A stretch of DNA of 64,000 bases from Sphagnum compactum (GCA_965153455.1 OZ234494.1:12028001-12092000), one strand, 5' to 3'; positions 1-61,227 are shown, counted from the stretch's first letter. Translations and numbers: made by a program. The notes: a model not told the origin generated them from the sequence alone.

Positions 1-144
1 TAACCTCCATGACCTTCCATGCTGCTCTGGCAGGTTCCGGAATGATTTTTGTTACCCCCCATATAATTTGTGTAAACTAATATCCTCCATAAACTAATAT
101 CTTCCGATCGGTCCCAAGGATATTAGTTTAGAGAGAGTTAACTG
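1..144. mobile_element. Right end of a Tc1/mariner(pogo)-type MITE inserted at a TA inside the adjacent LTR
   Basis: Ends ...GAGAGAGTTAACTG followed by TA (145-146), the reverse complement of a TA-CAGTTAACTCTC-type TIR. It has an internal inverted repeat TAAACTAATATC/GATATTAGTTTA. Homology of the flank to the 60325-61227 LTR stops at this TA. The left end lies outside the window. Confidence 0.5.
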
Positions 145-645
145 TATAGTATTCTCTGCGTTCGCCTGCGGCACCCGCATCCAAATGGCTTTTCGTCCTG
201 GGACTCCCAAGGAGGAGTCGTGAAACTATCCTGGTTTGGACTCCTGGGACTTTGGAAGCTCATAGCTCCCAGCTCCGACTTCCGATTGAGATGAGGTCTA
301 AAGCAATCTTGTAACTCTCCTCGCGAGCTTTTCAACGGTGTGTCGCACTCCACCTGCACGCACCGGGGTCGGGTCGATTCCCGACTTTTAGTGGTCGGGC
401 AGTTTGACTCCCGGCCCTTCTTTTGACCATAACTTGTGCTGTAGATCTTCAAATGGCCTATGTGAGCCCATTTTCGACATCTACACTTCAAGACCTTTCC
501 ACCGGTATAAAGAACTTTTCAATGCAAGGTGTTTTGACCCCTATAATCAAGCTCTAAGTTTTCGGGAGTCCCCGAGGACTCCAAGTCCCCACTTTCGGGA
601 GTGTGAGTCTCATCCTCACACTTGCCTCAAAGTGGGGTTGCGACA
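145..645 (-). mobile_element. Partial LTR related to the solo LTR at 60325-61227, apparently inserted into the gag region of the Gypsy element
   Basis: The reverse complement begins TGTCGCAACCCC. It aligns by eye with about 60450-60930 (shared AAGTTATGGTCAAAA, GACCACTAAAAGTCGGGA, CCGTTGAAAAGCTC, TAGACCTCATCTCAATC). Strand is relative to that copy. Gag-like coding sequence resumes directly at 646 with no PBS. Confidence 0.75.
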
Positions 646-1125
646 GTCACAGAGGCCCAAGTTATCCAATTTTGGTATGGGATCCTAAAAAAAGATTTGA
701 GATGAGAGGTGTAAGACATAATTTTCACCTAGCTTACCTAACCCACGTTGGCACTGATTTTGTAGGTATTTAAATGCATTAAACTCAACATGGTGAAGGA
801 GAAGGTTGTTACCCTAGGGTTTAGTAGGGAAACCCTAAAACCTTCTCCTACTTCATTGACTCAACAATCACGTGGTTAGGCATCGAGGACTGCACCACAA
901 AAAGGCAAGGGGCCCAAACAGGAACCCCGTGGGGGTTCCCCATCCTACACTACTAAACATGGGGGAGAGGATAAGTGTTGGAGGTGTGGTGGGCCACGTC
1001 GGAAAAAGGATTATCCCATTCCTCCTTAGGTGACCACCTCTAACCCTAATCCCAACCAACTTTGTTCCCATTGCAAGGTGGATGTAAACCATTGCTTCAT
1101 GTTTCATCCAAAGTTATGGCAAGGT
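646..1125 (+). pseudogene. gag: Gag C-terminal part with degenerate CCHC zinc knuckle
   Basis: VTEAQVIQFWYGILKKDLR*EV*DIIFT*LT*PTLALIL, then QLCSHCKVDVNHCFMFHPKL at ~1057-1116, a knuckle-like motif with a small deletion. Confidence 0.55.
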
Positions 1126-2093
1126 CAGTTCTAGACATAAAATGTGAGGAAGTCTTTAGGTTTTAGCAGGGGCTAGAAAACGAATGGTGTGGCCAATAAA
1201 AGGCCGGCTACCAAATTAGTTCCAAACCAACCCAATGCCATGGAGGCACAGTTTGCACGTTTAGAGGCGTTGGTGACGAGTATGGCATCCAGCATGGCAA
1301 CATAGGTGAACTCATAGCACCTATGCCAAGTGATTATTCAGCTTAGGGTTTCGACCCTGGATTTTTTTGTGGGGTTGGATTTTCAAGGCCATTAAGTCCA
1401 GATGAGATCAAATCAGGTATTCCCGACGGTCATGTTTTAAGGGTAGCCAATGACAAAACCCTAGTCATGGTTTTGACAACCGCACCAATTATTAGGGGAA
1501 ATGTTAAAGTGCAGGAACCACAAGGTGTTGATGAGAGATTAAATCCTTAGCGTGGGGAGGCTCAACATTAAATTCGTATGCCACAATCCTTCATGTTGAT
1601 CGACACAGTCCACACTTCAATGGACACATCCAACCCCATGAGGGCATCGATTACAACCATTAGATTGTCTGGTTCCACTTCAACAACTTGGGCACCCAAT
1701 AGTGTGTGGGGGGCAACTAGGTTGGTGTGCCAAACACCATTGTTTCCCACTACGATGCTTGATTATCGACCAACTACAATATTTCTTATGGCAGCCACAA
1801 TATGTGATAGCATGGATACACCAGGGATGGTGGCTACACCTATCAAGGATTCCTCGGAAAGCTTATTCTGTCAACCACCAATTGGCCAAATATTTGTTGG
1901 CGACATACCTGTCGACCATTTATTTGTTGACCTACATGTGAGTGCATTTGTTGATGGATTACATGTTGGCCAGCCACCTGTTATGGTGGTGCCATCTTGG
2001 CATGTCGCAACAGCCAAATTCCAAGAGCTTCCAACACACCCACCCATTAATCAAGCAAGAGTTTTACCTAGTGTAGTGGTGGTACAGAATTAA

Positions 2094-2480
2094 GAAGGTG
2101 TTTTTCAAATGAAGGGGGATTCAGGACAATATTATCAACTCAAAAGGATATTACTGGATTGAAAAGCTCAACTTTTGATGTTGGGAAAAACAACATTGGA
2201 GGGTCTAAGGTTGACCAATGTTGATTTGGAGCCATGCATGTAGTAGGATTTTGACATGATGGGTGGGTCAGAAAGCTAAGGGGGATAACCAAACATGAGG
2301 TCGTCATTTAAGTTAATTTCATTAGACCTGCAGATTATATTAAGGTTTGTGCTAAGGTAGTGGTTATGTAGGCTACATCGTATGATGTGTTGGTTGGGGG
2401 GGGGGGGGGGCATTTTGTATCCCTTGGGAATCACCCTAGATTTTTGGGAAGAGATTGCTTATTATCAACCATGATGGCAA
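2094..2480 (+). pseudogene. Retropepsin-type aspartic protease domain
   Basis: KRILLD*KAQLLMLG is a decayed LLD(S/T)GA motif at ~2143-2185, in frame with ORF 1578-2093. The downstream SYDVLVGG motif lies at ~2378-2400. Confidence 0.7.
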
Positions 2481-2668
2481 ACATGAAATAGTCATAAGGC
2501 TTTTCTGTTAGTTACCTTCATTGGGGGGCTAACATTAGCCATACATTATATTCATCAGGCTTTGCACATTCTATCGTCACCAAGCCCATAGGTACTTGTA
2601 GATCTAGGCCATGGACCACTTGGTTTACGACCTTTGGATTCTAGGGTCATTCGGTGGCATGTCATGAG

Positions 2669-3630
2669 GATGGGATTTACATGGTAGAGCTTTTTGGAGG
2701 CATTAATTCTAGCCTTGTAGTAGTCCTTCAATTCGGCATTAAGCTTCATCGATACTACTATGTGGAAAAGGATCCTCAAGCCCGACAAGCCTCCATGCAC
2801 CATATTATGATGTTGCGACAACAACATCTTGAGTTGTTGCTTACATCAGCAATCTAGGGTTATTAACAGGCCTTACCAAACAACATCACATTGTTGAGGG
2901 CGCATGATTTGGACAAGATTGGACCAATGGACTTGGTCATATCAGGATGGCCGTGTCAGGGTTTATCATAGGCTAGCATAAGTTAGGGACTTTTAGACCC
3001 CAAATCAGGGTTATTTTGGGAGTTGATTTGGGTGCTGCAATATTTGCAGACCTCTTAACTACACTCATTTACATGTGTTGGAGACCCCAACTTTGGGGGA
3101 TTTTCGGCCAATTGTATTGGTAACATGGCAACAAATTAAGGCTTGGATCGAAGAGCCAATGCAAGTGGATGCTACAATACGTGGTTCATGTGCCCACCAC
3201 TTTCGATGGCTATGGACTAACCTAGCTCCACTAGAGGTACTTCAGAGTGCATATTAGTTCATTCCAAGGTCCCACATGCTTGGTGGATGACATTTTGGAT
3301 CTATGACGACATTCTTTTGTCGTTTAGCATGATGATCGTCTAACTTTGGTTATAATCAATAAGGTTGGCCTACCTTGGGTAACTTTACCTATTCTTTTGA
3401 GTTTTTTCCATTTTCACGCACTTCGAGATTGCAATCCAAACATGATTTGGGACGCCAACTCATCTAGGATGGAGGAGCCCAATGTTGATGAACGAGAGCG
3501 AGCTATGGGATTTCACACAAGCACCACAACTGTACAAAGACTTTCCGAAGGTACTCATAGATGGATATTAGGACAAGTTATGGACCTTATCTGTTTCACA
3601 TGGATCTTTACCCTTTGTTGGGCTGAGTAG
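2669..3630 (+). pseudogene. C5 cytosine DNA methyltransferase catalytic domain, DNMT3-like with unpermuted motif order, embedded in pol
   Basis: Motif I IYMVELFGGI (2675-2704); motif II RYYYVEKD; motif IV GPMDLVISGWPCQGLS (2921-2968, PC at 2951-2956); SGLFWELIWVL; decayed motif VI VLETP; motif VIII PMQVDATIRGSCAHHFRWLWTNL; motif IX ERERAMGF; motif X RWILGQVMDL. Confidence 0.93.
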
Positions 3631-3974
3631 GTCCAATTTGCACAATCTTTCTTGCCCACCCACCCTTCCTCTACTTTTGTTGCACCTACATCTAGGTTAG
3701 TTATGTTGGTGCAAGGGGGGGGGTCATCTTTAGCATTTATGGGTTCAAGGATTTATGGGTAATGGAAAAGAGGTTTTTGATGTGGGGGCGCCAGGGCATT
3801 TTGGTGTTATGCTACCTTTTGCATAATAATCATAGGTTTCACCTTCAACCTTGGGTGCTGGGGATGTTCCATCATCTCAGCCCAAGGTACAAGTGACCAC
3901 AGGGACATGGGGGCCAGATATTGGTCCCGCGGTTATAAGAGATGAGGTGTAAGAAGTACGATGGCTATTATAGG

Positions 3975-4700
3975 ACCATGTTTGTTGTTTTGCCTTTAGT
4001 TTGAAGGAATTGGGACAGTTGAAAGGACATGAAGTCTGAATTGTATTGGAGGATGATAATCCTATTTTCAAATGACCTTATAGGTTGAGTGAGATGGATA
4101 GGGCCTTGGTTTAGGCTTGAACAACAGAATTGTTGGATGCAGGTTTGGTGGAACTGTCGAGAATTGAATATGTTTCAGCCATAGTGATGCCACCCAAGAA
4201 GGATATTTTTGGCAATTGGATGGAGTAGCGCATGTGTGGGGATTATCGCCCAGTCAACAAGCACACGCGTTTGGACAAGTATGCCATGCCTTTATTGGAG
4301 GAGATCTTTGATGCCCTTGGTTAGGTCAAGGTTATCAGTACCTTGGACTTGAGGTATGGCTACCATCAATTGCAAGAAGGTGATAAGGTCAAGATGACAT
4401 TTTGGGGAATTGATCTTCATGGGAAGGATTGTCCGTATCAATAATGGTTTTTGCCATTTGGTTTGAAGATTGCCCTTGCAGAGTTTCAGAAAGTGATGGA
4501 TCGGGTGTTGGTAAAATTTAGTTTTTCCAAGTGCTACATTGATGACATTATTGCCTTTAACCCGACATCAGAGGATCACAAACATCATTTGTAAGAGGTA
4601 TTCGAAAGATTTAAGGATCATAACCTTAAGTTTCATCCATGCAAGTTGATTTTTCCAGACATAGGTAGAATACCCGATCGTATGATTTATTTAGGTGGAT
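3975..4700 (+). pseudogene. Ty3/Gypsy reverse transcriptase domain
   Basis: PYRLS...RMCGDYRPVNK...YAMPLLEEIFD...STLDLRYGYHQL...LPFGLK...FQKVMD...CYIDDII, with YIDD at 4535-4546 and many in-frame stops. Confidence 0.97.
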
Positions 4701-5215
4701 TAAGAGTATAAAAAGCCAAGGTTGAGGCCATTTCATAGGTGCCTTAATTGACTGATGTTAGCCGGTTACAAGCCTTTTAAGGATTGTGTAATTAGTACTA
4801 GAAATTTGTTAAAGGATTTAACAACATTGCTAAACCTTTAACTAGGTTGATGCAGATTGACCAGAAATATGTTTGGGGAAAGGAACAAGAGCACACATTT
4901 CAGGAGTTGAAGGCCTGGCTTTCCTCAGTCCCCAATTTAAGGTGACCCATTCAAAGACATCTTTTTCAGTTGCATATTGATTAAAGTACCTTAGGATTGG
5001 AAGCCGTGCTTACCAAACTGGATGATGATGGTCGGGTGCTATTTGTATGGTAGCCCATTTACCTTGCTTACCGATCATTAATCCCTAAAGTTTCCGATGG
5101 AATCAAATCAACTCACATGAAAGTTGGCCAAATGGGCATTTATCTTTCAAGAATATGATTTGAATATTGTTCATAAGGTTGGTAGGGTTAATTGGAATGC
5201 CGATGGGTTGAGTCA
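4700..5215 (+). pseudogene. RT connection and RNase H domain with an internal deletion
   Basis: FQLHID*STLGLEAVL, YLYGSPFTLLTDH*SLK and LAKWAFIFQEYDLNIVHKVGRVNWNADGLS. Confidence 0.9.
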
Positions 5216-5560
5216 GAACTCAAGTTCCAATGAGGAGGATCCCACAGGTGCCAGGTGGCATGGAAAGGTGGATTTGGAGGCAATACTAGGATGGCATGCC
5301 TCTGCATACCTATGTATTTTGTTGGGATATTTCAAATCAACTCACATGAAAGTTGGCCAAATGGGCATTTATCTTTCAAGAATATGATTTGAATATTGTT
5401 CATAAGGTTGGTAGGGTTAATTGGAATGCCGATGGGTTGAGTTAGAACTCAAGTTCCAATGAGGAGGATCCCACAGGTGCCAGGTGGCATGGAAAGGTGG
5501 ATTTGGAGGCAATACTAGGATGACATGCCTCTGCATACCTATGTATTTTGTTGGGATATT
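5103..5560 (+). repeat. 229-bp tandem duplication (5103-5331 / 5332-5560)
   Basis: Two adjacent near-identical copies; by eye they differ only by a C/T and a G/A transition. Confidence 0.95.
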
Positions 5561-5799
5561 TTGGGGATGTATCCCAAGACAACATGAGTAGTGGGAATTC
5601 CCACAATGACGATGATGAGCCAGAAGGCAATGGTGCCCTAGACATCCATTTAAATTTACTTGTTATGGCCTATCTACAAGCATGAAAAATTTCAGTGGGA
5701 TACCCAAGGAGTGAGATCAAATTGTCCATAGGGCAAAACGGTTCCAATGGGAATGTAATTCCTTATTATGTGTGTGGATAGATGGGTGAGTATGTGTAA

Positions 5800-6860
5800 T
5801 ACCATGCTTAGAATAGCATGAAGGCCTTGTACGACATGCTCATGAAGAATTGGGCCATTTTGGGGTTTGATGGACCTATAGTTTACTTAGGTAATATTGG
5901 TGGTGTGGGATGCAACTATAGGTTCAACAATTTGTTTCTCGGTGTATGGTGTGTGATCAAGTACGTGCATCATTCAACACACCAACACCCCAACTACAAC
6001 CCTTACCAATTATGGGGCTAGGTTATCAATGGAGCTTGGATTTTGCCGGCCCATTGAGTTTGATGCCTCGACATAATCGATATGTTTTGGTTATAATTAA
6101 GCACTTCTCTAAGTGGTTAGAGTTGGTGCCATTGCCAAAACACAATAGTGAGGGAACTACATATGCATTTCTGGACAAAATGTTCCAGTTGAGGTTTTCA
6201 TTGATCAAGGTACAAAATTCTGAAGGGGTTTCCAAGATTTGTGTGAAAAGGCATTAATAGATCATCAAACTACTTCATGATATCATCCTAAAGCAAATGG
6301 GTTGGCCAAACAAATGGTGTAGATAGTGAAGCGAAAATTGCGGAAGTATGCCCTTTATAAATGCCACATTCAAGATTGGGACTTGTAGTTACCATGGTTG
6401 GCCATAGGATATAAGTTTAATTTGTAGGCCTCATTGGCATTTTTTTCATCGTATTTTTTGTTATTCAGTCGGGATCTTGAGCTACCAGCTTCTATTCAAC
6501 ATGATGTTATGATTGTGATTAGTTTCGATGACCTTTTAGTGTGGATTTAGGCATATGGGTAGCGGGTTGCTTTGTTCAAGTGTGTGATGCATATGGCTAT
6601 GGAGAATCTAACAATTGTTTAGCACCAAGATACTCTTCGATACGCCATGATTTGTGGAAGAGGTTATCGACCTTGAGTTTGTAGGTTTGAGCCAAGGGAT
6701 TATGTTTATTAGTAGTAAATAACACCTACCACATTGGATGTGACTGCAGGTCGTGTGATTTTATGTGTTCGGAAGGTTTTACCTTTCGAAGTATTGTTGT
6801 TGGAAGGACGAGATGGTTAGACATAGAAAGACCATGTGCATAATTGTGTGCCATGTCATC
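5800..6860 (+). pseudogene. Integrase (HHCC zinc finger, DDE core, C-terminal region)
   Basis: HAHEELGHFG...YWW...CMVCDQ; WSLDFAGPL (D at 6039); IDQGTKF; YHPKANGLAKQMV, where the expected catalytic E reads K. Confidence 0.93.
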
Positions 6861-6919
6861 TTCTTAATGTGAATGGCTAGATTGACCCATCATTGGTTGT
6901 TATACTTGTTGGTTTACAA

Positions 6920-7063
6920 TGTATGATGTGTGGGCAATCCACAAGAATTGCCATTATGTTGGTTTGTGACCAGTGTTCAAAAGGATGGCACATGGCATGT
7001 TTGACACCGCCTTTCGACTAGGTATTGGTTGGCAAATGGTTTTGCTCTCGGTGCATCCAATAG
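6920..7063 (+). pseudogene. PHD finger (C4HC3) at the polyprotein C-terminus
   Basis: CMMCGQSTRIAIMLVCDQCSKGWHMACLTPPFD*VLVGKWFCSRCIQ* retains all eight Zn ligands and the conserved W-x-C. One internal TAG probably derives from CAG. Confidence 0.9.
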
Positions 7064-10000
7064 ATGTGGTTCCCATAATTACATAATAAAAGTAGTTAAA
7101 TTTTTTTCCCTAGGATGTTTCACCTTTGGCTAAGTATTTGAAAGATTCCATATAAGCGGTTAATGATGGGGCTCACATTTGCACCTAGCTTAATGATCCT
7201 TTTATCTTGTAACTAAAGGGTTCACCTTGGTGGATTGTTGGCGGTAGTTGTATAATGTTATCTACTTCAAGGGATTTCAATGTCAAATAGGGTTTAAATG
7301 TGGTGTACCAATTAGGGTATTTTTTATTATGTGTGATGAGTATGGTGACAACAATAGTTGTAGGTGTCGACCTTGGAGTGCACAATAGACGTGGCAAAAA
7401 TATTCCATGGCTTGTCAAAAAAAATTCTACCATGACATGGAATATTTTGTCACGTCACAAAATATTCCACCATGTCTAAATAATTTCCACGTGGCAAATG
7501 AATATATTTAAAATATTCCATGACATGGCATGGAATATTTTTAAAGATGTTCTTTCTTGCTCACTTAAAGCGAGCCCTATTCATGTTTGCTTGCTCACCC
7601 ACTTGCTTGCTAATGTCGTTGCACATAGTAGTTATCACTATTGTTTTCTTAATCTTGATGATCCTATGGTCCTATTTGTTGTCATGGTTTTTTGGTTGTT
7701 ATATTTAATAGTTGCCACCATGACACTTTTAATTTTGATGATATTTTATTTTGGGGGTTTGTGAAAGGGTGATGTGGAAAGCATATTTGAAGGCTGAATT
7801 CAAATATGGCAAGACACATGTTTCAAAGTTGGCATACAAATGCATGAGACATGAAAACATGAAACCCATTGGCCTAAGAAAATTGGTATTGATCCATTAT
7901 AAACTATTAATATAGTTTTAGAGCTTAAAAGTATATTAATTTCACTTAATTTGGCCTTGTGAAAACTTATAACATTTTTTTCATTGTTTTTTATGATGTT
8001 TGGCATCATAGAACCTAATCAAGAAGTTACTTGGAACCTATTCTAACATACCTTAAAATTGGGAATAAGCTTGATTTGAAAATTAAAAAAGAACCCAAAC
8101 CAAACTTCACATTAAAAAATTGAATTTAGAAATAAGTCCCAATTTTATATAAAAAAGGAACCTAATTGAAACCAAAACTGACCCCATAATGTTATTTGAA
8201 ATTGAGACTAAAGGTTCTTCTTAAAACCTAAGAACCACACAATAATGGTAAAGAATAGTCGATTCCAATTAATAAAAACCCAATCCAAATTCGGTTTAAA
8301 TTTTAGAATTGGAATTAAAATGAATTTTTATTTTTTAAGAACCAAACTTAGAATTGATTCTTGATTTTATTTATTTGTCAAAATGAACCAATATCAATAG
8401 AAGTGATTAGAATTGAGAATTAATTGGTATTCAACCACAAGTTGTGGTTTGGGTTAATAAAAAATAATTTCAAATCAAAATTGATTTTCAAAATCGAAAT
8501 TATATATATATAAATTGAACCCAAAATTGGATGCCAACTCCACTTATGCTTGGAACCTGCATAATTCTAATTTAATTTTCAAAATCATTTTTTCTTAAAA
8601 ATAGAAAACCACCAAAAGTTAGTTTTTTGTATATCCTAGAGTCATTAGTTGTTAATGTAACTTATGACATTGGCCCAAGAGTGAATTGGTTACCCAACTA
8701 ATTTTTCCTTTCAAACTTTTTCTTGGCAATTTAATTAAATTTCAATGACAAAGATACTCAAAATTCAATATTTCTTACACCTTAGGCAAAATATTTCAAA
8801 TCATGTTCATTAAATCCCACTTTCGGGCGAACTTTCCAACGAGGTGGAAAGCATGCCCAAACTCCTTTATAACCTTTAATTTAGATATAAATGACTTTTC
8901 AATGTTCAATATTCAATAACTTCTTCATCGTAGGTTGAAACATTATGAAATCAACTCAATGCACCCCTATTCGACGAGAGATTTCCAACAATACCAAGAG
9001 TGCACAAGAGGTGATGTGGTTTGAGACATCCACCAATACCAAGAAATGCAACAAGAGGTGTTGCGGTTTTGGAGGTCTGGACAATACAAACAAACAAACA
9101 ACCTTCCTTGATAGATTATGCTTGCTTGTTACAAAGGGCCACCAGGATTTGAAATTTTTTTCCTAAAAAAACTAGGCCAAGCACATAGCACACCTTCTAC
9201 AGTTTACTTACTCAAACCTAGCACCCATTTTTTTCCCACAAGTAAGGTTAGGGGAGGCCAACAAAATGGCTATTTATTTGAGAATAAAATGGCTTTTTGG
9301 CAAAAACAACTTTCTTAAAATGGACAGTGAGCAGGGGGTAGGTATCCATAAGCCGTCTTTTGATTGTGGCCGTCCAAAATCCAAGATTAAAAAAAAAGCC
9401 TTAGAAGAGATCTACGGTTGGGAACTCCTCTCATCAAAGCCCAACCGTCTCCCACGAGGGGACAGCATCAAGTTCCAAGCGTCGTTGGATGGATCATGGG
9501 ATCCGATCGTACGGACCAGAGGAATATCTGGTTATCCCTTTTGTCTCCCCGAAGTTGGCAATCATTGGTGGTACGACACGTGGCGTAGTGATGACCCAAT
9601 CTCTTCTCTCTGACTAGACCGCCCTTTCTCTCAAAACCGACCTTTTTGGGAGTTTTAAGACTTCACTCTTACTGGCCTTTTGGCACCTTTTATCTCCACG
9701 TGTTAAATGCACACTTTTGTGGTCAGATATGAAAGTGCAACCTATCCAGCCTGTGTTTTTACTGGCTATATATATATATCCAAAAAGCGAAATTAAAAAT
9801 TAAAAGTTCTAAACTCCAGTGCTTTAAAAAAAATTCTATAGTCCTAATCATGCCAAAAAAATTATTTTTTTTGTTGGATTTTCATAAATGGTTCAAATAA
9901 GTAGCCAAAATAAAATAAAAGGATGTTTAATTTTTTAAGTTTCATATTTTGCTTGTAGTCAAATTTGGCTAAATCGTGCAATGGATGATCACCACTTTGG

Positions 10001-10652
10001 CTACATCACAAAATTGACAAAAGAAGACAATTGAACCTATCCAAAGCCTGATGAGGAAAAGTAGGCCTTGGGTGAACTAGTGACTATAATTTTTACCATG
10101 GTGAAAACCAATGTTGTGTGTGTAAATGTAAAATATCATGTGTAATAACCATGTAAGTGTAAATCATTCACATTTCACACTCAAGTTTTTACATTTTTTA
10201 TTGTTATTGTTATATTTTGTCAACTACACTTACATGGCAATATTGTATATTTTTTGAAAGGCAATTGCATGATCCCAATATAATTTGTGATTTTATTTTC
10301 TTGGATTTAAAAAAAAATTTGGAGTATAAGAACCTTTTTGTTTTGGTTAAAACTTTTTTTGTTCTTGGGAAACAATGAACCTCCAATCTAACAAATGTTC
10401 ATATTGATCAAATATAATGATTGGTTTCGGTGGTTTTATTTAATTAATATTAAGCTTGTAATTGTTTTAAATCTCATGTTTATGAATGAGGCTTAAAAAA
10501 CAATATGTAATCCAAAAATATTGTTGGAGGCCCAAATACCAAGTATGTATGGGTGGAGCTACTTTAAGAAACATGACAATATATTGAAGAACCAGATGAA
10601 AATTGTCAATTATTTTGTTATAGTTTTCAGATGACCCATAATTGTTTTTGAC

Positions 10653-11107
10653 CAATGTTGTGTAGGTATACTATTTTTGATATATCCTAAAGCAAGGGTA
10701 TATTAGGATTCATTTTTTTCCATCATATAAAGTTTTTGATATAAATATTATAATTTTTAGTAGATGGGTAGGGTGTGGGTAATCACCATCATATACCCAA
10801 GGTTGGGGTAAGAAAATAGGTATGTATTCTAAATTTATTTAGTAAAAATAAAAAATGTTCATATTTTGAAGTTATTAATATAGTTTCCAAATTAATGGAA
10901 TTCAATTTTTTTTTACCCTAGTTGTATGGGCATATTTTATATATACCCAATGGTATCAATAGGATACGATTTTTTCAGATGTATATATTTTGGGTATGCA
11001 TTTCATTATGATACATTAGTTTTAAGGAAATAGATTAAGATAAAATATATACCCTACCCATACTTGACAAGTATATATGGGTAAAAGAATATACTCACAC
11101 AACATTG
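10653..11107. mobile_element. hAT-type MITE (455 bp)
   Basis: TIRs CAATGTTGTGT...(C)ACACAACATTG with flanking 8-mers TTTTTGAC/GTTTTGAC (7/8 TSD). Related CAATGTTG termini occur at 10109, 11116 and 13111. Confidence 0.65.
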
Positions 11108-14100
11108 GTTTTGACTAATGTTGGGCCAATATCAAATTTTGAACATATTAGGTGACATTGGTATAAAATCTTTTATGAAATATTCACAACAACCTCCAAT
11201 TGGTATTGGATTTATTTGAAAGCTTTCATACGAACCAATAAGGTCTTAGGCTAATCTTTGGCTAAAACTTATGTGGTAGAGTTTATACTTGGTATTGAGA
11301 TTCATATAACCCTAATATTAAACTAATATTACATTACAAGTGTCAAGTCCATGTTAGTCATGTTAAGTATTGGTATGAGATTGGTATTGCTTCAGCTGCA
11401 TTAGTTTGATATGTTTTCTAATATCAATGTAGCAAAAATTGAGGTTGTGGTTTCTTTAATGACAACATAGGACTAACTCACCTAAACCACACTTAGGTCA
11501 CCAACAACTTTACAATTCATGACAATTCACCAAACAACATCATAAAACAAATCTCAACATCATACTCCAATGTTTCCCCACGGCAATGACTATTATCAAC
11601 ATAATATCAGAGGCTTAATCAATATTTGTAAATTATCGAGGAAACATGATAAGTTCTGCAAACTTGGTGGATTAGATCTCTCTAGACCACTCTCTTTAGG
11701 CTATTATTATCTCGCTTGGCGATCACTATTTACAGGGCTTTTTTTTTCAACCCATTTCACCCCAACAAATTCATTCATGAAATTTTGACAACATAGTTCT
11801 AGCCATAGACACTTCATAATGTGTTCCCTTATGCCCCAAATTAGTGCAACGTAACCTTCCCATAGTTCCCAATGTATGAATCTTTCTTCTTGAACAAATA
11901 AGTTTTGAATTTCCCATTCACATTCCATGACAATCCTTCAACGATGCCTTATTCAGACAAGCCTTCAAGTCCCTTATGGATTTTCATCATTTCCACCAAA
12001 CATACACATTTGTTCATGTTTTTTTGTTCTACAAATGTTTAATCTATTAATTCCATTGCACAACAGAAAAGAAAAATAGTTGGAAAGAACTAAGTTTTTT
12101 CTTGACCATGAACATTCTTCTCGACAATCTAATCAATAGTCAAATGTCCAGCATCTATTGCAACAACATTGTTAATCCCTAACTCCAAAGCAAAAGAAGT
12201 ACTTAACTCTTGAAACATTTAACCTTTTATCGCCTCCATTGTGCCCTCATGCTTGGATTCCGCCACCAACACCTCCGGCTAAGTCCACCATTGCCAAAAG
12301 ACCATCAAAAACATTAAACAAGAAATTGGTTCCTCCATCGTCTTGAAATTACTCTCACGATGCACACCACAAATTTTTCTAATGCCACTAACCTGCATCA
12401 AACAAACATTCACACTTTAGAAATAAAAAAGAAGAAAAATCCATCAACTATCCACTCCCTTGTTGCCTTTTGCTTTGAGTTGCACAATCCACTTTTCATC
12501 CGTTAAATATTCACTTCAGTGAACATCACATCCCACCCCAATTCATCTTACACTAGGACCAACACAAATCTACATGCCAAGGTTCCAACTTGGTACTTGC
12601 CCAACAACACTGGCCAAGACTAGCATTGGTATGTTATTGAGAGATTGAGATCGATTGGTTATCAACAAGAATCCAAAGGGTAGGTTATTAATAACCTACT
12701 TGTCACTGGTAGGATAATCTACCTTGCCTAGAATGTGTTTTGTAAAGACTTGACAATACCTTTATGAATGAGGTATCGTTTCGAATAAATAAGAAAATTG
12801 ACCTTGAGGTTTTTTGTATTCTATCCTATTAGGTTTTTAATTTCTCAACCCTACATGTTTTTTTAGCAATCACCCTTTTTGTTATCATGTTGGAACTCTG
12901 GATGCCCACGTTTGCCGGATAACATAGTCTATAATTTGTACTTTATTGGAACACATTGTTAAATGTGTAACCTCATTCTTGAAAATAAGGCCATTAAAAT
13001 AAAATTAAAATAAAATCCCCATCAAACATGCCTTACTTGGATAGTATAATTAGATTTTTTCAAGGCAAGTATTTGAAAGTCGACCCTTATGCATAAAAGT
13101 TAGTTATTATCAATGTTGTGTGGTTCTTAATTTTTAAAAGAACCTTTGATCCTGATTTTGATTCTTAAAAAATAATTGGAGGTTTTTTTAATGTGAGTTT
13201 GAGTCCAATTCTTTTCATTTTAAAACCTTGTAGTTTTGATTGACATATTTTTTCAAATTCAAGTGTAACCAAAAAGGAGGATGTCAATAAATATCTCATA
13301 ACAATAAACATTACACATCAATATGAATAATTCACACAACAATGTTGTTCCTCTTTTATTCAAGAGTTTGTTGAAACATGGTTTCCAACAATTTATTTCA
13401 CACCAACACACAACAAAGCTACTATCACTTACAAGTAGATAGACATATATTGATATGCCTTGATGACTATGACCAAAAAAATGGATCAAACTTTTTCCCA
13501 TTCACATCTCTTGTTTGTCGCTAGGTATCATCCCATAATCGAGCAAACCCAAACTCAAAAAATTAAAACCTTATTCTCTCCTCCATTGATAACAAGATTT
13601 CCACCCAAACCCAAAACACAACAATTCCCTTTCTTTATAGTTCACCACAAAACATAAACCCTAGCTCCATATGCTCAAATGTTGGACTTGTTAGGGAGTG
13701 AATTTTAAACGTTGTCGACAATTCCATTCTCTAGTCCTAGGTCAAGGAGAAGAATCAACACCTACATTCTATTCTACAATCTTCAACTTTACGTTTCCTC
13801 TGCAATGAAATAAGAAAATTTGGATATAATGCTTTCTTGTAGAATCGAGACAAAAAACAGACACAAGCCTAAAGATATGCACTTAGCTTCACTGAAGTCC
13901 TCTCCAAAACCTCCCCACTTAAATCTTGCATCGGCATTCCTTATCTCCATCTTCAATTGCTCCTTCTCCATTCAAAGCCTCTCCACACAAATCTTATTAG
14001 CCATCACACAAACTCAACAACAAATTAAGAACAAAAGATTCATCAAAGCAGTAACACCCCTCCCCTCATGCCAGTTGCTGCCATTGTTGTCAACTTCATG

Positions 14101-18802: not shown

Positions 18803-28496
<9,694 letters not shown>

Positions 28497-28650: not shown

Positions 28651-29353
28651 TTAGAGAGGTCTTCTTCGTCGCCAGTGGCAACTGGGATATGTAGCAGAGT
28701 ACAAGCAAGTCCCACCAGCAGCAGAGACATTGCCTGTGTTCTATATTTTGGATGAAATACATCCTTCCAATGTGGTGCTTTTGGATGAAATAAAACCTTC
28801 AAATATTGTAATTTTGGATGAAGTACAACCTTCATATGAGTTCATCCAACCGTCACATATTCTAGTTTGGATGAAGTACAATCTTCAAATATTGTACTTT
28901 TGGATGAAGTACAACCTTCAAATGAGTTCATCCAACCCTCAGTTATTGTATTTTGGTGATTAGTAGGGTTAATTTCAATTAATTAATTGACCCTCCAAAA
29001 TCCTTTTTTGGTGATTAGGATGGTTAATCCTTCCATCTTTTTTTTTTTCATTTTTTTCTCAATTCTCTCTGTTTTTCTGTCTTCTTTTTGCTCTTGCTAT
29101 TTTTTTCATCTCTTTGTTTTTTTTTCCTTCCAAAGAGGATTTGTCTTATCCGCATTTAATCACATCCTTCTATCTTCTTTTTTCTTTTCACTATTTACTT
29201 TCCCTTTATTTTTATTGTTATTTTTCCTTCTTTTCTATTTTTCAACTAAGATGTGGTCACCTTTTTTTTTTTTCTAAAATCCTAATAGCCACCCTGATAA
29301 CCGTCGGGGGTCTGTTCCTATTTCTAATTAGCTGCCCGGCACTAGTAATTAGA
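28651..29353 (-). mobile_element. Non-autonomous Helitron-like element with an internal ~33-bp minisatellite
   Basis: The minus strand starts TCTAATTACTAG and ends with hairpin GTTGCCACTGGCGAC, 13 nt, then CTAA (CTRR). Tandem TTTTGGATGAAGTACAACCTTCAAAT units lie at 28742-28960. The flanks are not the canonical A/T. Confidence 0.5.
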
Positions 29354-60324: not shown

Positions 60325-61227
60325 TGGCGCAACCCTAGCCTTGGGCTCGTGACCAAGTCAAGGGGTTGCAAGGTTGCGGGCCAAAAGGGAAACCCAAGAG
60401 TCATGTTGCATGCTCCCGGGAATGCAAGAGAGTGTGAGGGAATAAACCCTCACACTCCCAAGGGAACTCCCACTTTGGGAGTTGGAGTCTCGGTGGACTC
60501 CCGAATGTTCAGAGAGAGATCGCAGGGGTCAAAACCCAATGGATTGAAGAGTTCTTTATATCATTGAAAAGATATTGAAACATAGATGTCTAAAATGGGC
60601 TCGCATGACCCATTTGGACATCTGAAACACAAGTTATGGTCAAAAGAAGGGCCGGAAATCAAATTGGCAATTTGACTCCCGACCACTAAAAGTCGGGAGT
60701 CGACCCGATTTCCTTGCATGCAGGTGGCATGCGACATACCGTTGAAAAGCTCTCAACGAGGGCTACAACTTTGCTTTAGACCTCATCTCAATCAGAGGTC
60801 TGCACGCAAAGTTATGGGCCCCCAAAGTCGTGGGAGTCCCGGCTTGGGGAATTTCGAGACTCCCACTTGGGAGTCCTGGGACAAAATGTCATTTGGATGT
60901 GGGCCTCGTGGAGAGGCACAAAGTATACTATAAGGGGGAAGGTGGTGGCTTCCCCAAGTTCGGGCCGTGGTGAGTCTTGTGAATCCGAGTTTGCCCGTGG
61001 CTCGTCCTAGCACCAAAAGTGCTCCAATTGTGCACTAACCACTTTGTGCAGGTCCGTGTGAATAGTTTGATGCTTGTCATTCTTCCTAGTCCCATCCCAG
61101 AGCTCCAGCATGCCCCTCTACCCCTCCAAAGTGCTGCAAGCCAGGGAGCGTGCCCCGACTCCTTATTCTTCCGTTGTTTTCTGTTTGGACTCACATTTGA
61201 ATCCCTCAAGAATTTGGGAGCGCGTCA
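60325..61227. mobile_element. Solo LTR (903 bp)
   Basis: TG...CA termini (TGGCGCAACC...GCGCGTCA), flanking 5-mers CCAAT/CCAAC (4/5 TSD), a GC-rich block in AT-rich flanks, and homology to 145-645. Confidence 0.85.

Follow-up and report, generated by a model that had tools for sequence, protein, structure and literature searches.

A degraded Gypsy-type retroelement of a Sphagnum-like moss, with a DNMT3-like methyltransferase and a PHD finger in its Pol polyprotein

The window analysed here is a 64,000-nucleotide stretch of Sphagnum compactum DNA (GCA_965153455.1, OZ234494.1:12028001-12092000), and positions 646-7385 of its plus strand are a degraded Gypsy-type retroelement, a single copy of a multicopy family. 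The full order of its parts is gag remnant, protease (PR) region, DNMT3-like cytosine methyltransferase (MT), reverse transcriptase (RT), RNase H (RH), integrase (INT), PHD finger and pol stop. In this family the MT and the PHD finger are integral parts of Pol. Probably, the window element is a dead, 5'-truncated copy of an old multicopy Gypsy family of a Sphagnum-like moss, whose active Pol would have brought a de novo methyltransferase to integration sites chosen by the PHD finger. The element belongs to a known kind, Gypsy elements with a DNMT3 and DIRS-like repeats, and it extends that kind to land plants. A preliminary description of this DNA had read the same order on one strand; Pfam and tblastn bear it out, except that gag is present only as a C-terminal remnant and the protease is placed from relatives.

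The three plus-strand frames of 601-7502 were translated with X at stops and scanned with Pfam. All matches lie on one strand and in one order, DNA_methylase, RVT_1, RT_RNaseH_2/RT_RNaseH, Integrase_H2C2 (5820-5969), rve (6024-6239, at 21.7 bits under its cut-off of 32.6) and PHD (Table 1). The window RT is 30-56% identical to plant Gypsy polyproteins, and 52-56% identical to its Calypogeia and Marchantia relatives. There is no Pfam match for gag in the window copy; the remnant was recognized by tblastn with the Sphagnum fallax gene model P0252, which is 35% identical over 646-1011. The protease region is placed by Marchantia P0176 and P0177, whose N-terminal portions match window 1704-2522 (tblastn), by a protease match 350-400 nucleotides upstream of the MT in sister loci L025/L026, L028/L034 and L065, and by the aspartyl protease that precedes the MT in relatives P0093 and P0009. 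The Pol is therefore described as Gypsy-type, PR-RT-RH-INT with a DDE integrase and H2C2 finger, its protease part taken from relatives. No Pfam Phage_integrase match indicative of a tyrosine recombinase occurs in the window element or the scanned relatives; the window element has a DDE integrase instead, and there is no Chromo match in the Pfam scans, the PHD finger occupying the integrase C-terminus instead.

The copy is 5'-truncated, functionless and, as was said of it from the start, dead: its coding path is broken by 68 in-frame stops and changes frame six times or more, it has a 229-nucleotide duplication and a deletion of ~200 nucleotides, and there is no open reading frame (ORF) of at least 180 amino acids in window 1-9000. 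Eight of the stops are within the MT, which decays as its pol neighbours do. At the deletion, the alignments of L005, L028, L001 and others break at window 2529/2533, and these loci are ~197-205 bases longer.

Table 1. Parts of the retroelement in the window
Feature	Position	Strand	Remarks
gag remnant, C-terminal part	646..1011	+	decayed CCHC-like knuckle near 970-1010; 6 in-frame stops
Protease-containing region (inferred)	1572..2522	+	from sister copies and relatives
Deletion of ~200 nucleotides relative to sister copies	2529..2533	+	just upstream of MT
DNMT3-like C5 cytosine methyltransferase	2648..3720	+	frames 2, 3, 1; Pfam, tblastn, motif alignment
Reverse transcriptase and RNase H	3866..5330	+	RVT_1 4223-4645; RT_RNaseH_2 and RT_RNaseH 4874-5156
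Tandem duplication of 229 nucleotides in RNase H	5103..5560	+	two units, 99% alike; frame shifted
DDE integrase, H2C2 zinc finger and catalytic core	5700..6650	+	Pfam and tblastn with intact relatives
Integrase C-terminal extension and PHD finger	6651..7063	+	PHD 6920-7054; pol stop 7061-7063
3' untranslated end	7064..7385	+	one B repeat 7293-7383

A DNA_methylase match had been expected at 2670-3630. By Pfam it lies at 2882-3049, with 22.6 bits and a cut-off of 22, and tblastn with the intact relatives P0006, P0177 and P0093 extends the MT over 2648-3720 without any intron-like gap, in agreement with the intronless module first described. Motifs I (ELFGG), IV (GWPCQG), VIII (WTNL) and IX (ERERAMGF) are recognizable in the window; the ENV of motif VI is degraded to E-TP, and the PC of motif IV is kept. 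All 29 PDB matches at E ≤ 1e-3 of P0006, which is 43% identical to the window MT, are to DNMT3A, B or C, the best at 1.8e-10, and the motif order, I-VIII followed by IX-X, is canonical and non-permuted. By this homology the MT of the element is DNMT3-like, as had been proposed. Alignment of 15 relatives with three window pieces shows that Marchantia P0177, P0002 and P0006 keep motifs I (FGG), IV (GWPCQG), VI (ENV), VIII (RxR..WTN) and IX (ERERAMGF). Apart from P0252, which has a gap at motif IV, all of the aligned sequences retain the catalytic cysteine. The conserved motifs, together with the substitution ratios given below, are what suggest methyltransferase activity.

Is the MT a part of the family, or a passenger of this one copy? 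An integral module had been proposed, and three kinds of evidence agree with it: the linkage of MT to RT in sister copies, the multicopy depth of the MT, and the selection on its codons. When 1.84 billion representative proteins were searched by phmmer with the MT piece 2645-3034, 615 relatives were recovered at E ≤ 1e-3, of which 147 reached E ≤ 1e-10. Pfam scans of 11 of the longer hits showed seven RT/RNase H/integrase polyproteins, one protein in which a protease precedes the MT, and three without any retroelement domain. One relative, P0036 (1417 amino acids), contains both a C5 DNA_methylase and a Dam domain. Metagenome contigs were scanned with an alignment of the window MT piece and three close fragments; 263 stretches matched, 172 encode a relative, and the 79 loci kept represent 49 distinct copies. 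Of the 35 distinct copies with at least 2.3 kb past the MT start, 28 have an RT downstream of the MT in the same orientation, and the MT-to-RT spacing is the same across sister copies. Integrase is present in 19 of 30 distinct copies with enough room, and the C-terminal/PHD region in 18 of 29; the remaining distinct copies are truncated or interrupted.

Copy numbers rest on these metagenome loci and on read and contig depth, the latter taken from contigs and reads placed on window 1-10000 at 80% likeness. In run X1, where single-copy depth is ~42, the MT bins reach 408-651 and the gag and protease bins 143-323. The MT region is at ~10-15 times single-copy depth in the genome runs of two species (X1 and X8); the depth profile of the second species, X8, is nearly the same as that of X1, and the raw DNA reads of X11 agree.

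Window codons were compared with the aligned codons of the 49 copies, ungapped codons only and in the window's own frames, and nonsynonymous to synonymous substitution ratios (dN/dS) were obtained from the pooled pairs. The three MT pieces give 0.31, 0.47 and 0.37, RT-RH 0.24, the integrase 0.24-0.26 and the PHD finger 0.41. When the frames are shifted by one or two bases the ratios are 0.47-1.24 (0.53-0.93 for the MT pieces), and third codon positions change most often. The divergence of the MT is that of a coding Pol domain under slightly weaker constraint than RT, and these ratios indicate that the MT was under purifying selection while the family diversified.

The PHD finger scores 32.5 bits with Pfam and retains all eight C4HC3 ligands and the GWH motif. 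The ligands and the GWHxxCLxPPL signature are kept in 12 of 12 aligned sequences, the window and 11 relatives, which have in common the patterns C..C, LCD.C..GWH..CL.PPL and W.C..C. In three close relatives the protein stops 1-5 residues past the PHD finger, and the C-terminal extension between integrase and PHD is conserved (tblastn with relatives). Against the PDB, the PHD finger gives matches down to 1.4e-12, the nearest being PHF12, DPF3, CHD4, KDM5A, ATXR5, BAZ2A/B, PHF21A, AIRE and UHRF1, whose PHD fingers read the H3 tail in its unmodified form. The 60 PDB matches listed include no classical H3K4me3 reader. The PHD finger of the element thus resembles, in its sequence, readers of the unmodified histone H3 tail.

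The element had been placed at 646-7063. Its start stands, since sister-copy alignments to the window begin at 645-652; its end lies at ~7385 (alignments end at 7378-7388), and 7063 is the pol stop. Full sister copies extend ~3 kb further 5' of the point equivalent to window 646, so 646 is a 5' cut or interruption inside gag. The cut is adjoined by a very abundant repeat at window 174-645, with a sharp end at 645 and an inverted copy at 60477-60903; its summed contig depth is ~85,000 (single-copy, ~42), its reads are plentiful in the polyA RNA run, and it has no relation to the element or to the element's own repeats.

Paired long terminal repeats (LTRs) had been anticipated. There is no LTR pair in the window, and the full sister copies carry split direct repeats instead, in the arrangement A, coding region, B, A, B. 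In eight distinct sister copies the PHD finger is followed by a 96-nucleotide B, an A of ~290 nucleotides and a second B; five have a further A 5.6-8.1 kb upstream of the MT, and full-copy homology spans exactly from the 5' A to the last B, ~11.2 kb. The window copy has a single B, an 82.6% match, and lacks the A and the second B that would follow; no A occurs within window 1-12000. We considered whether A might be an unrelated small inserted element, and rejected this: the flanking 96-nucleotide B is far too long for a target duplication, and a chance 3' insertion is also contradicted by the recurrence of A at the 5' terminus. Read by eye, three full sister copies have TG...A ends and 4-bp target duplications, two of them perfect (CATA/CATA and GATT/GATT) and one alike in three of four bases (ATAC/ATAT); these ends and duplications argue for insertion by a DDE integrase. 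Within one element the A repeats are 82-86% identical (L015, L035 and L043), from which it follows that the full copies are old. At commonly quoted plant substitution rates, such identity corresponds to an age on the scale of ten million years. Pfam gave no match in the 6.5 kb 5' region of L043, a full sister copy.

In L056, L058, L062 and L078 the 5' A is only ~2 kb upstream of the MT, rather than the 5.6-8.1 kb seen elsewhere, and these may be short or internally deleted variants without most of the 5' region. In L028/L029/L034, at ~11640-12480, an 840-nucleotide piece comprising the PHD end, the 3' untranslated region and B-A-B is nested in the RT of another copy. L004/L005 are colinear with window 977-10000, including 2.6 kb of 3' flank, at 82-88% identity, and share the ~200-nucleotide discontinuity pattern of the other copies, without the window's deletion; the locus as a whole looks duplicated. 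An orthologous locus was considered for L004/L005 and not upheld, as their flanks are themselves repeated (depth 318-540) and divergence is high; a paralogous or homeologous duplicate of the window locus is as likely as an orthologue.

The host is a Sphagnum-like moss, and so a land plant, as the element's neighbour shows: exons of TBCD (tubulin-folding cofactor D) lie at ~20600-27500 on the minus strand, where a 239-amino acid ORF at 20608-21324 has 95% identity to the TBCD of Sphagnum troendelagicum, against 56% for Ceratodon and 52% for Physcomitrium, the next best matches. Relatives of the element are encoded in other bryophytes. A search with the RT-RH piece found a Calypogeia fissa relative at 56% identity; in Marchantia polymorpha Mp_2g26090 and MARPO_0091s0058, PF00145 is followed by RVT_1 and RNase H, which gives MT-RT-RH; and the Sphagnum fallax gene model BDL97_09G086500 is colinear with the window element from gag through the protease region, MT and RT to the integrase.

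The RT tree called for in the preliminary description was built quickly from 33 RT-RH rows hand-chosen from hits, with SH-like approximate likelihood ratio test (SH-aLRT) support only. It places the window in a clade of five rows with Marchantia and Calypogeia (96), inside a nine-row clade (96) that is inside an 18-row clade (99), apart from angiosperm Gypsy and chromovirus sequences. The 18-row clade includes P0093, which is CCHC-PR-MT-RT-RH-INT, and six RT-RH-MT-INT(-PHD) proteins (support 100 for the six). By this tree the closest relatives are in liverworts, and the sister clade has its MT between RNase H and integrase. The RT of P0091 (MT-PR-RT-RH-INT) falls outside the main clade, with plant chromovirus-like elements, which suggests an independent MT capture.

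Which known systems does the element resemble? The closest in kind is KnitGypsy-Dnmt3 of Klebsormidium nitens, as characterized in the text of de Mendoza et al. 2018 (PMC5890265): an intronless Dnmt3-type MT inside a Gypsy Pol ORF, DIRS-type repeats in the arrangement A, coding region, B, A, B, an MT under purifying selection, and a streptophyte host. The present family differs in its moss host, its liverwort relatives and the dead state of every copy seen. Compared with the charophyte element by text description only, it also has its MT between protease and RT, and a PHD finger that ends Pol. Neither the PR-MT-RT order nor the terminal PHD finger is described in that paper's text, in which 'PHD', 'moss' and 'embryophyt' have 0 occurrences, and which reports Dnmt3-bearing Gypsy elements, among green-lineage hosts, from K. 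nitens only.

Nearer in sequence are the RT-RH-MT-INT-PHD polyproteins P0040, P0068, P0081/P0159, P0112 and P0056 from public metagenome and genome data, which fall in the same RT clade (SH-aLRT 99) and have a homologous MT (34-37% identity) and an integrase tail and PHD finger that are 34-36% identical over ~295 residues. They differ in having the MT after RNase H, EC rather than PC in motif IV, and a tail of 113-468 residues past the PHD finger. The dinoflagellate SymbioDIRS-Dnmt3, by the account in PMC5890265, is likewise an MT-carrying retroelement with A...B-A-B repeats but has a tyrosine recombinase, whereas the present element has a DDE integrase. The 'EpiLTRs' of algae (Cymbomonas, Euglena) are presented as new in the available text of bioRxiv 10.64898/2026.05.21.726589, with a DNMT, a Dam domain and a chromodomain; they share with the present element the union of a cytosine MT and a chromatin-reader domain in a retroelement, but their DNMT groups with DNMT4 and is appended 3' of pol. 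The present element, in contrast, has a DNMT3-like MT and a PHD finger along with its DDE integrase.

The PHD finger by itself is also not without precedent in retroelements. REM1 of Chlamydomonas is a PHD-bearing retrotransposon. PHD fingers in retrotransposons are already on record (PMC6673714), and these elements and the chromoviruses resemble the present one in carrying, at the integrase C-terminus, a histone reader presumed to steer integration; the chromovirus reader is a chromodomain and not a PHD finger, and neither group is described as carrying a DNMT.

The claim of novelty first made for this architecture holds in part. No land-plant description of such an element was found in the literature searched, most subscription journals and supplements lying outside that search; however, Marchantia MT-RT-RH annotations are public, the repeats match those of the charophyte element, and PHD-bearing retrotransposons are known. 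Both a 2025 MBE paper and bioRxiv 10.64898/2026.05.21.726589, in the passages that cite de Mendoza 2018, say 'streptophytes' loosely.

What might a Pol of this composition, first proposed as an epigenetic writer-plus-reader system, have done when active? On the evidence of the encoded domains, it would have equipped the integration complex with a de novo cytosine methyltransferase, while the PHD finger would tether that complex to chromatin without H3K4 methylation. New copies would then land in silent chromatin and be marked as such; harm to the host would be limited, and the family could persist. We infer that a Pol-borne de novo MT acting at integration sites chosen by the PHD finger is the best-supported reading of mechanism.

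Of the alternatives, the one that survives best, although we think it unlikely, is that the MT served the replication cycle of elements with split direct repeats, for instance by marking cDNA or template, and not epigenetic silencing. Such marking has been suspected of the Dam-like methyltransferase domain that DIRS elements carry. The idea gains from the DIRS-like A...B-A-B repeats of this family, shared with KnitGypsy-Dnmt3 (text of PMC5890265), from the union of DNMT and Dam domains in P0036, and from the account in the available text of bioRxiv 10.64898/2026.05.21.726589 of DIRS and LTR elements that have captured methyltransferases more than once; yet within one RT clade the MT is found at two different places in Pol, MTs are also borne by several other types of element that do not have such repeats, and no result here ties the MT to cDNA synthesis.

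Somewhat less likely again is that the MT was a non-catalytic, DNA- or chromatin-binding pseudo-enzyme which, with the PHD finger, only steered integration. The altered residues of motifs X and IV described below favour this; the Marchantia proteins P0177, P0002 and P0006, which retain FGG, PCQ, ENV, RxR-WTN and ERERAMGF, argue against it, as do the catalytic cysteine kept wherever motif IV is aligned and the charophyte-element MT, whose key residues are conserved and whose Ka/Ks is <0.2 by the text of PMC5890265.

Action in trans on the host genome, disturbing or mimicking host silencing rather than acting on the element's own copies, seems improbable. The idea is raised in the discussion of PMC5890265, and nothing specific in the present analysis supports it; an MT that is part of Pol would be packaged with the integration machinery, and a PHD finger at the integrase C-terminus points to local action at integration sites. 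The last alternative, a host DNMT3 retrocopy or pseudogene captured by or nested in this Gypsy copy only, agrees with the weak Pfam score of the MT and with the lack of a second element copy anywhere in the window, but is refuted by the fixed MT-then-RT arrangement in the distinct sister copies with room for it, the multicopy MT in the runs of two species, the shared order in Marchantia and Sphagnum fallax proteins, and MT dN/dS values <0.5 in the correct frame.

Several observations weigh against a catalytically active MT as a fixed component of Pol in this family. Motif X is GQ, not GN, across the bryophyte clade, and motif IV is EC, not PC, in P0093 and the RT-RH-MT clade; from these changes, reduced or altered catalysis is possible. 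The dN/dS pairs are non-independent as well as pooled, and part of their divergence is neutral decay that followed insertion. The closest RT relatives, P0168, P0170, P0172, P0173 and P0174, are RT-RH-INT-PHD ORFs of ~1040 amino acids that start only 100-170 residues before the RT, and may either be truly without an MT or be cut gene models. In X1 the RT, integrase and PHD bins have a depth of ~1000-1300, about twice that of the MT bins, and the metagenome loci were picked by their MT and are silent on the frequency of MT-less relatives; MT-less sister families are possible. In the window copy the protease has neither a Pfam nor a tblastn match. Sister copies with intact ORFs had been looked forward to, but an ORF of at least 400 amino acids occurs in none of the 79 loci, and every copy seen is dead. 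In one polyA RNA run, window 669-4008 is free of reads and the RT has no more than a trace, a result that fits a silent family and carries no information on past function.

A wider history can be put forward only tentatively, and we regard it as rather less probable than not. The family might represent an ancient lineage of retroelements in bryophytes, mosses and liverworts, that combines an integrase with DIRS-like split repeats and a Pol bearing a DNMT3-like 'writer' and an H3K4me0-type PHD 'reader', and that shares a common ancestor with algal RT-RH-MT-INT-PHD elements including that of Klebsormidium; a transposon-borne DNMT3 would in that case have crossed the water-to-land transition and been shuffled within Pol. 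If so, plant DNMT3 genes could have an unrecognized reservoir in such bryophyte elements, or could once have been exchanged with them.

Plants defend themselves against transposons chiefly by cytosine methylation, and transposons with their own de novo methyltransferase invert this usual picture of methylation as anti-transposon defence. MT-bearing retroelements in print come from dinoflagellates and one charophyte (PMC5890265) and, recently, from some green and euglenid algae (bioRxiv 10.64898/2026.05.21.726589), so far as the available text of these sources goes. A Dnmt3-bearing, PHD-tailed family that became numerous in a moss and also has liverwort relatives takes the kind to land plants. 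The Marchantia gene models are concrete natural sequences in which MT activity and PHD specificity could be studied. The two MT positions within one RT clade, like the joint presence of DIRS-like repeats and a DDE integrase, are relevant to the assembly of epigenetic toolkits by retroelements and to the replication of split-repeat elements.

Nowhere in the window is there an Rfam match at gathering score. Beyond the 3' end of the element, window 8685-9018 and 9687-10000 are high-copy repeats at a depth of ~4300-4900 that draw some RNA reads and occur in the contigs as numerous variants with internal deletions. Further along, window 28747-28951 is a short tandem array of 86-nucleotide units beside simple GA/GT repeats.

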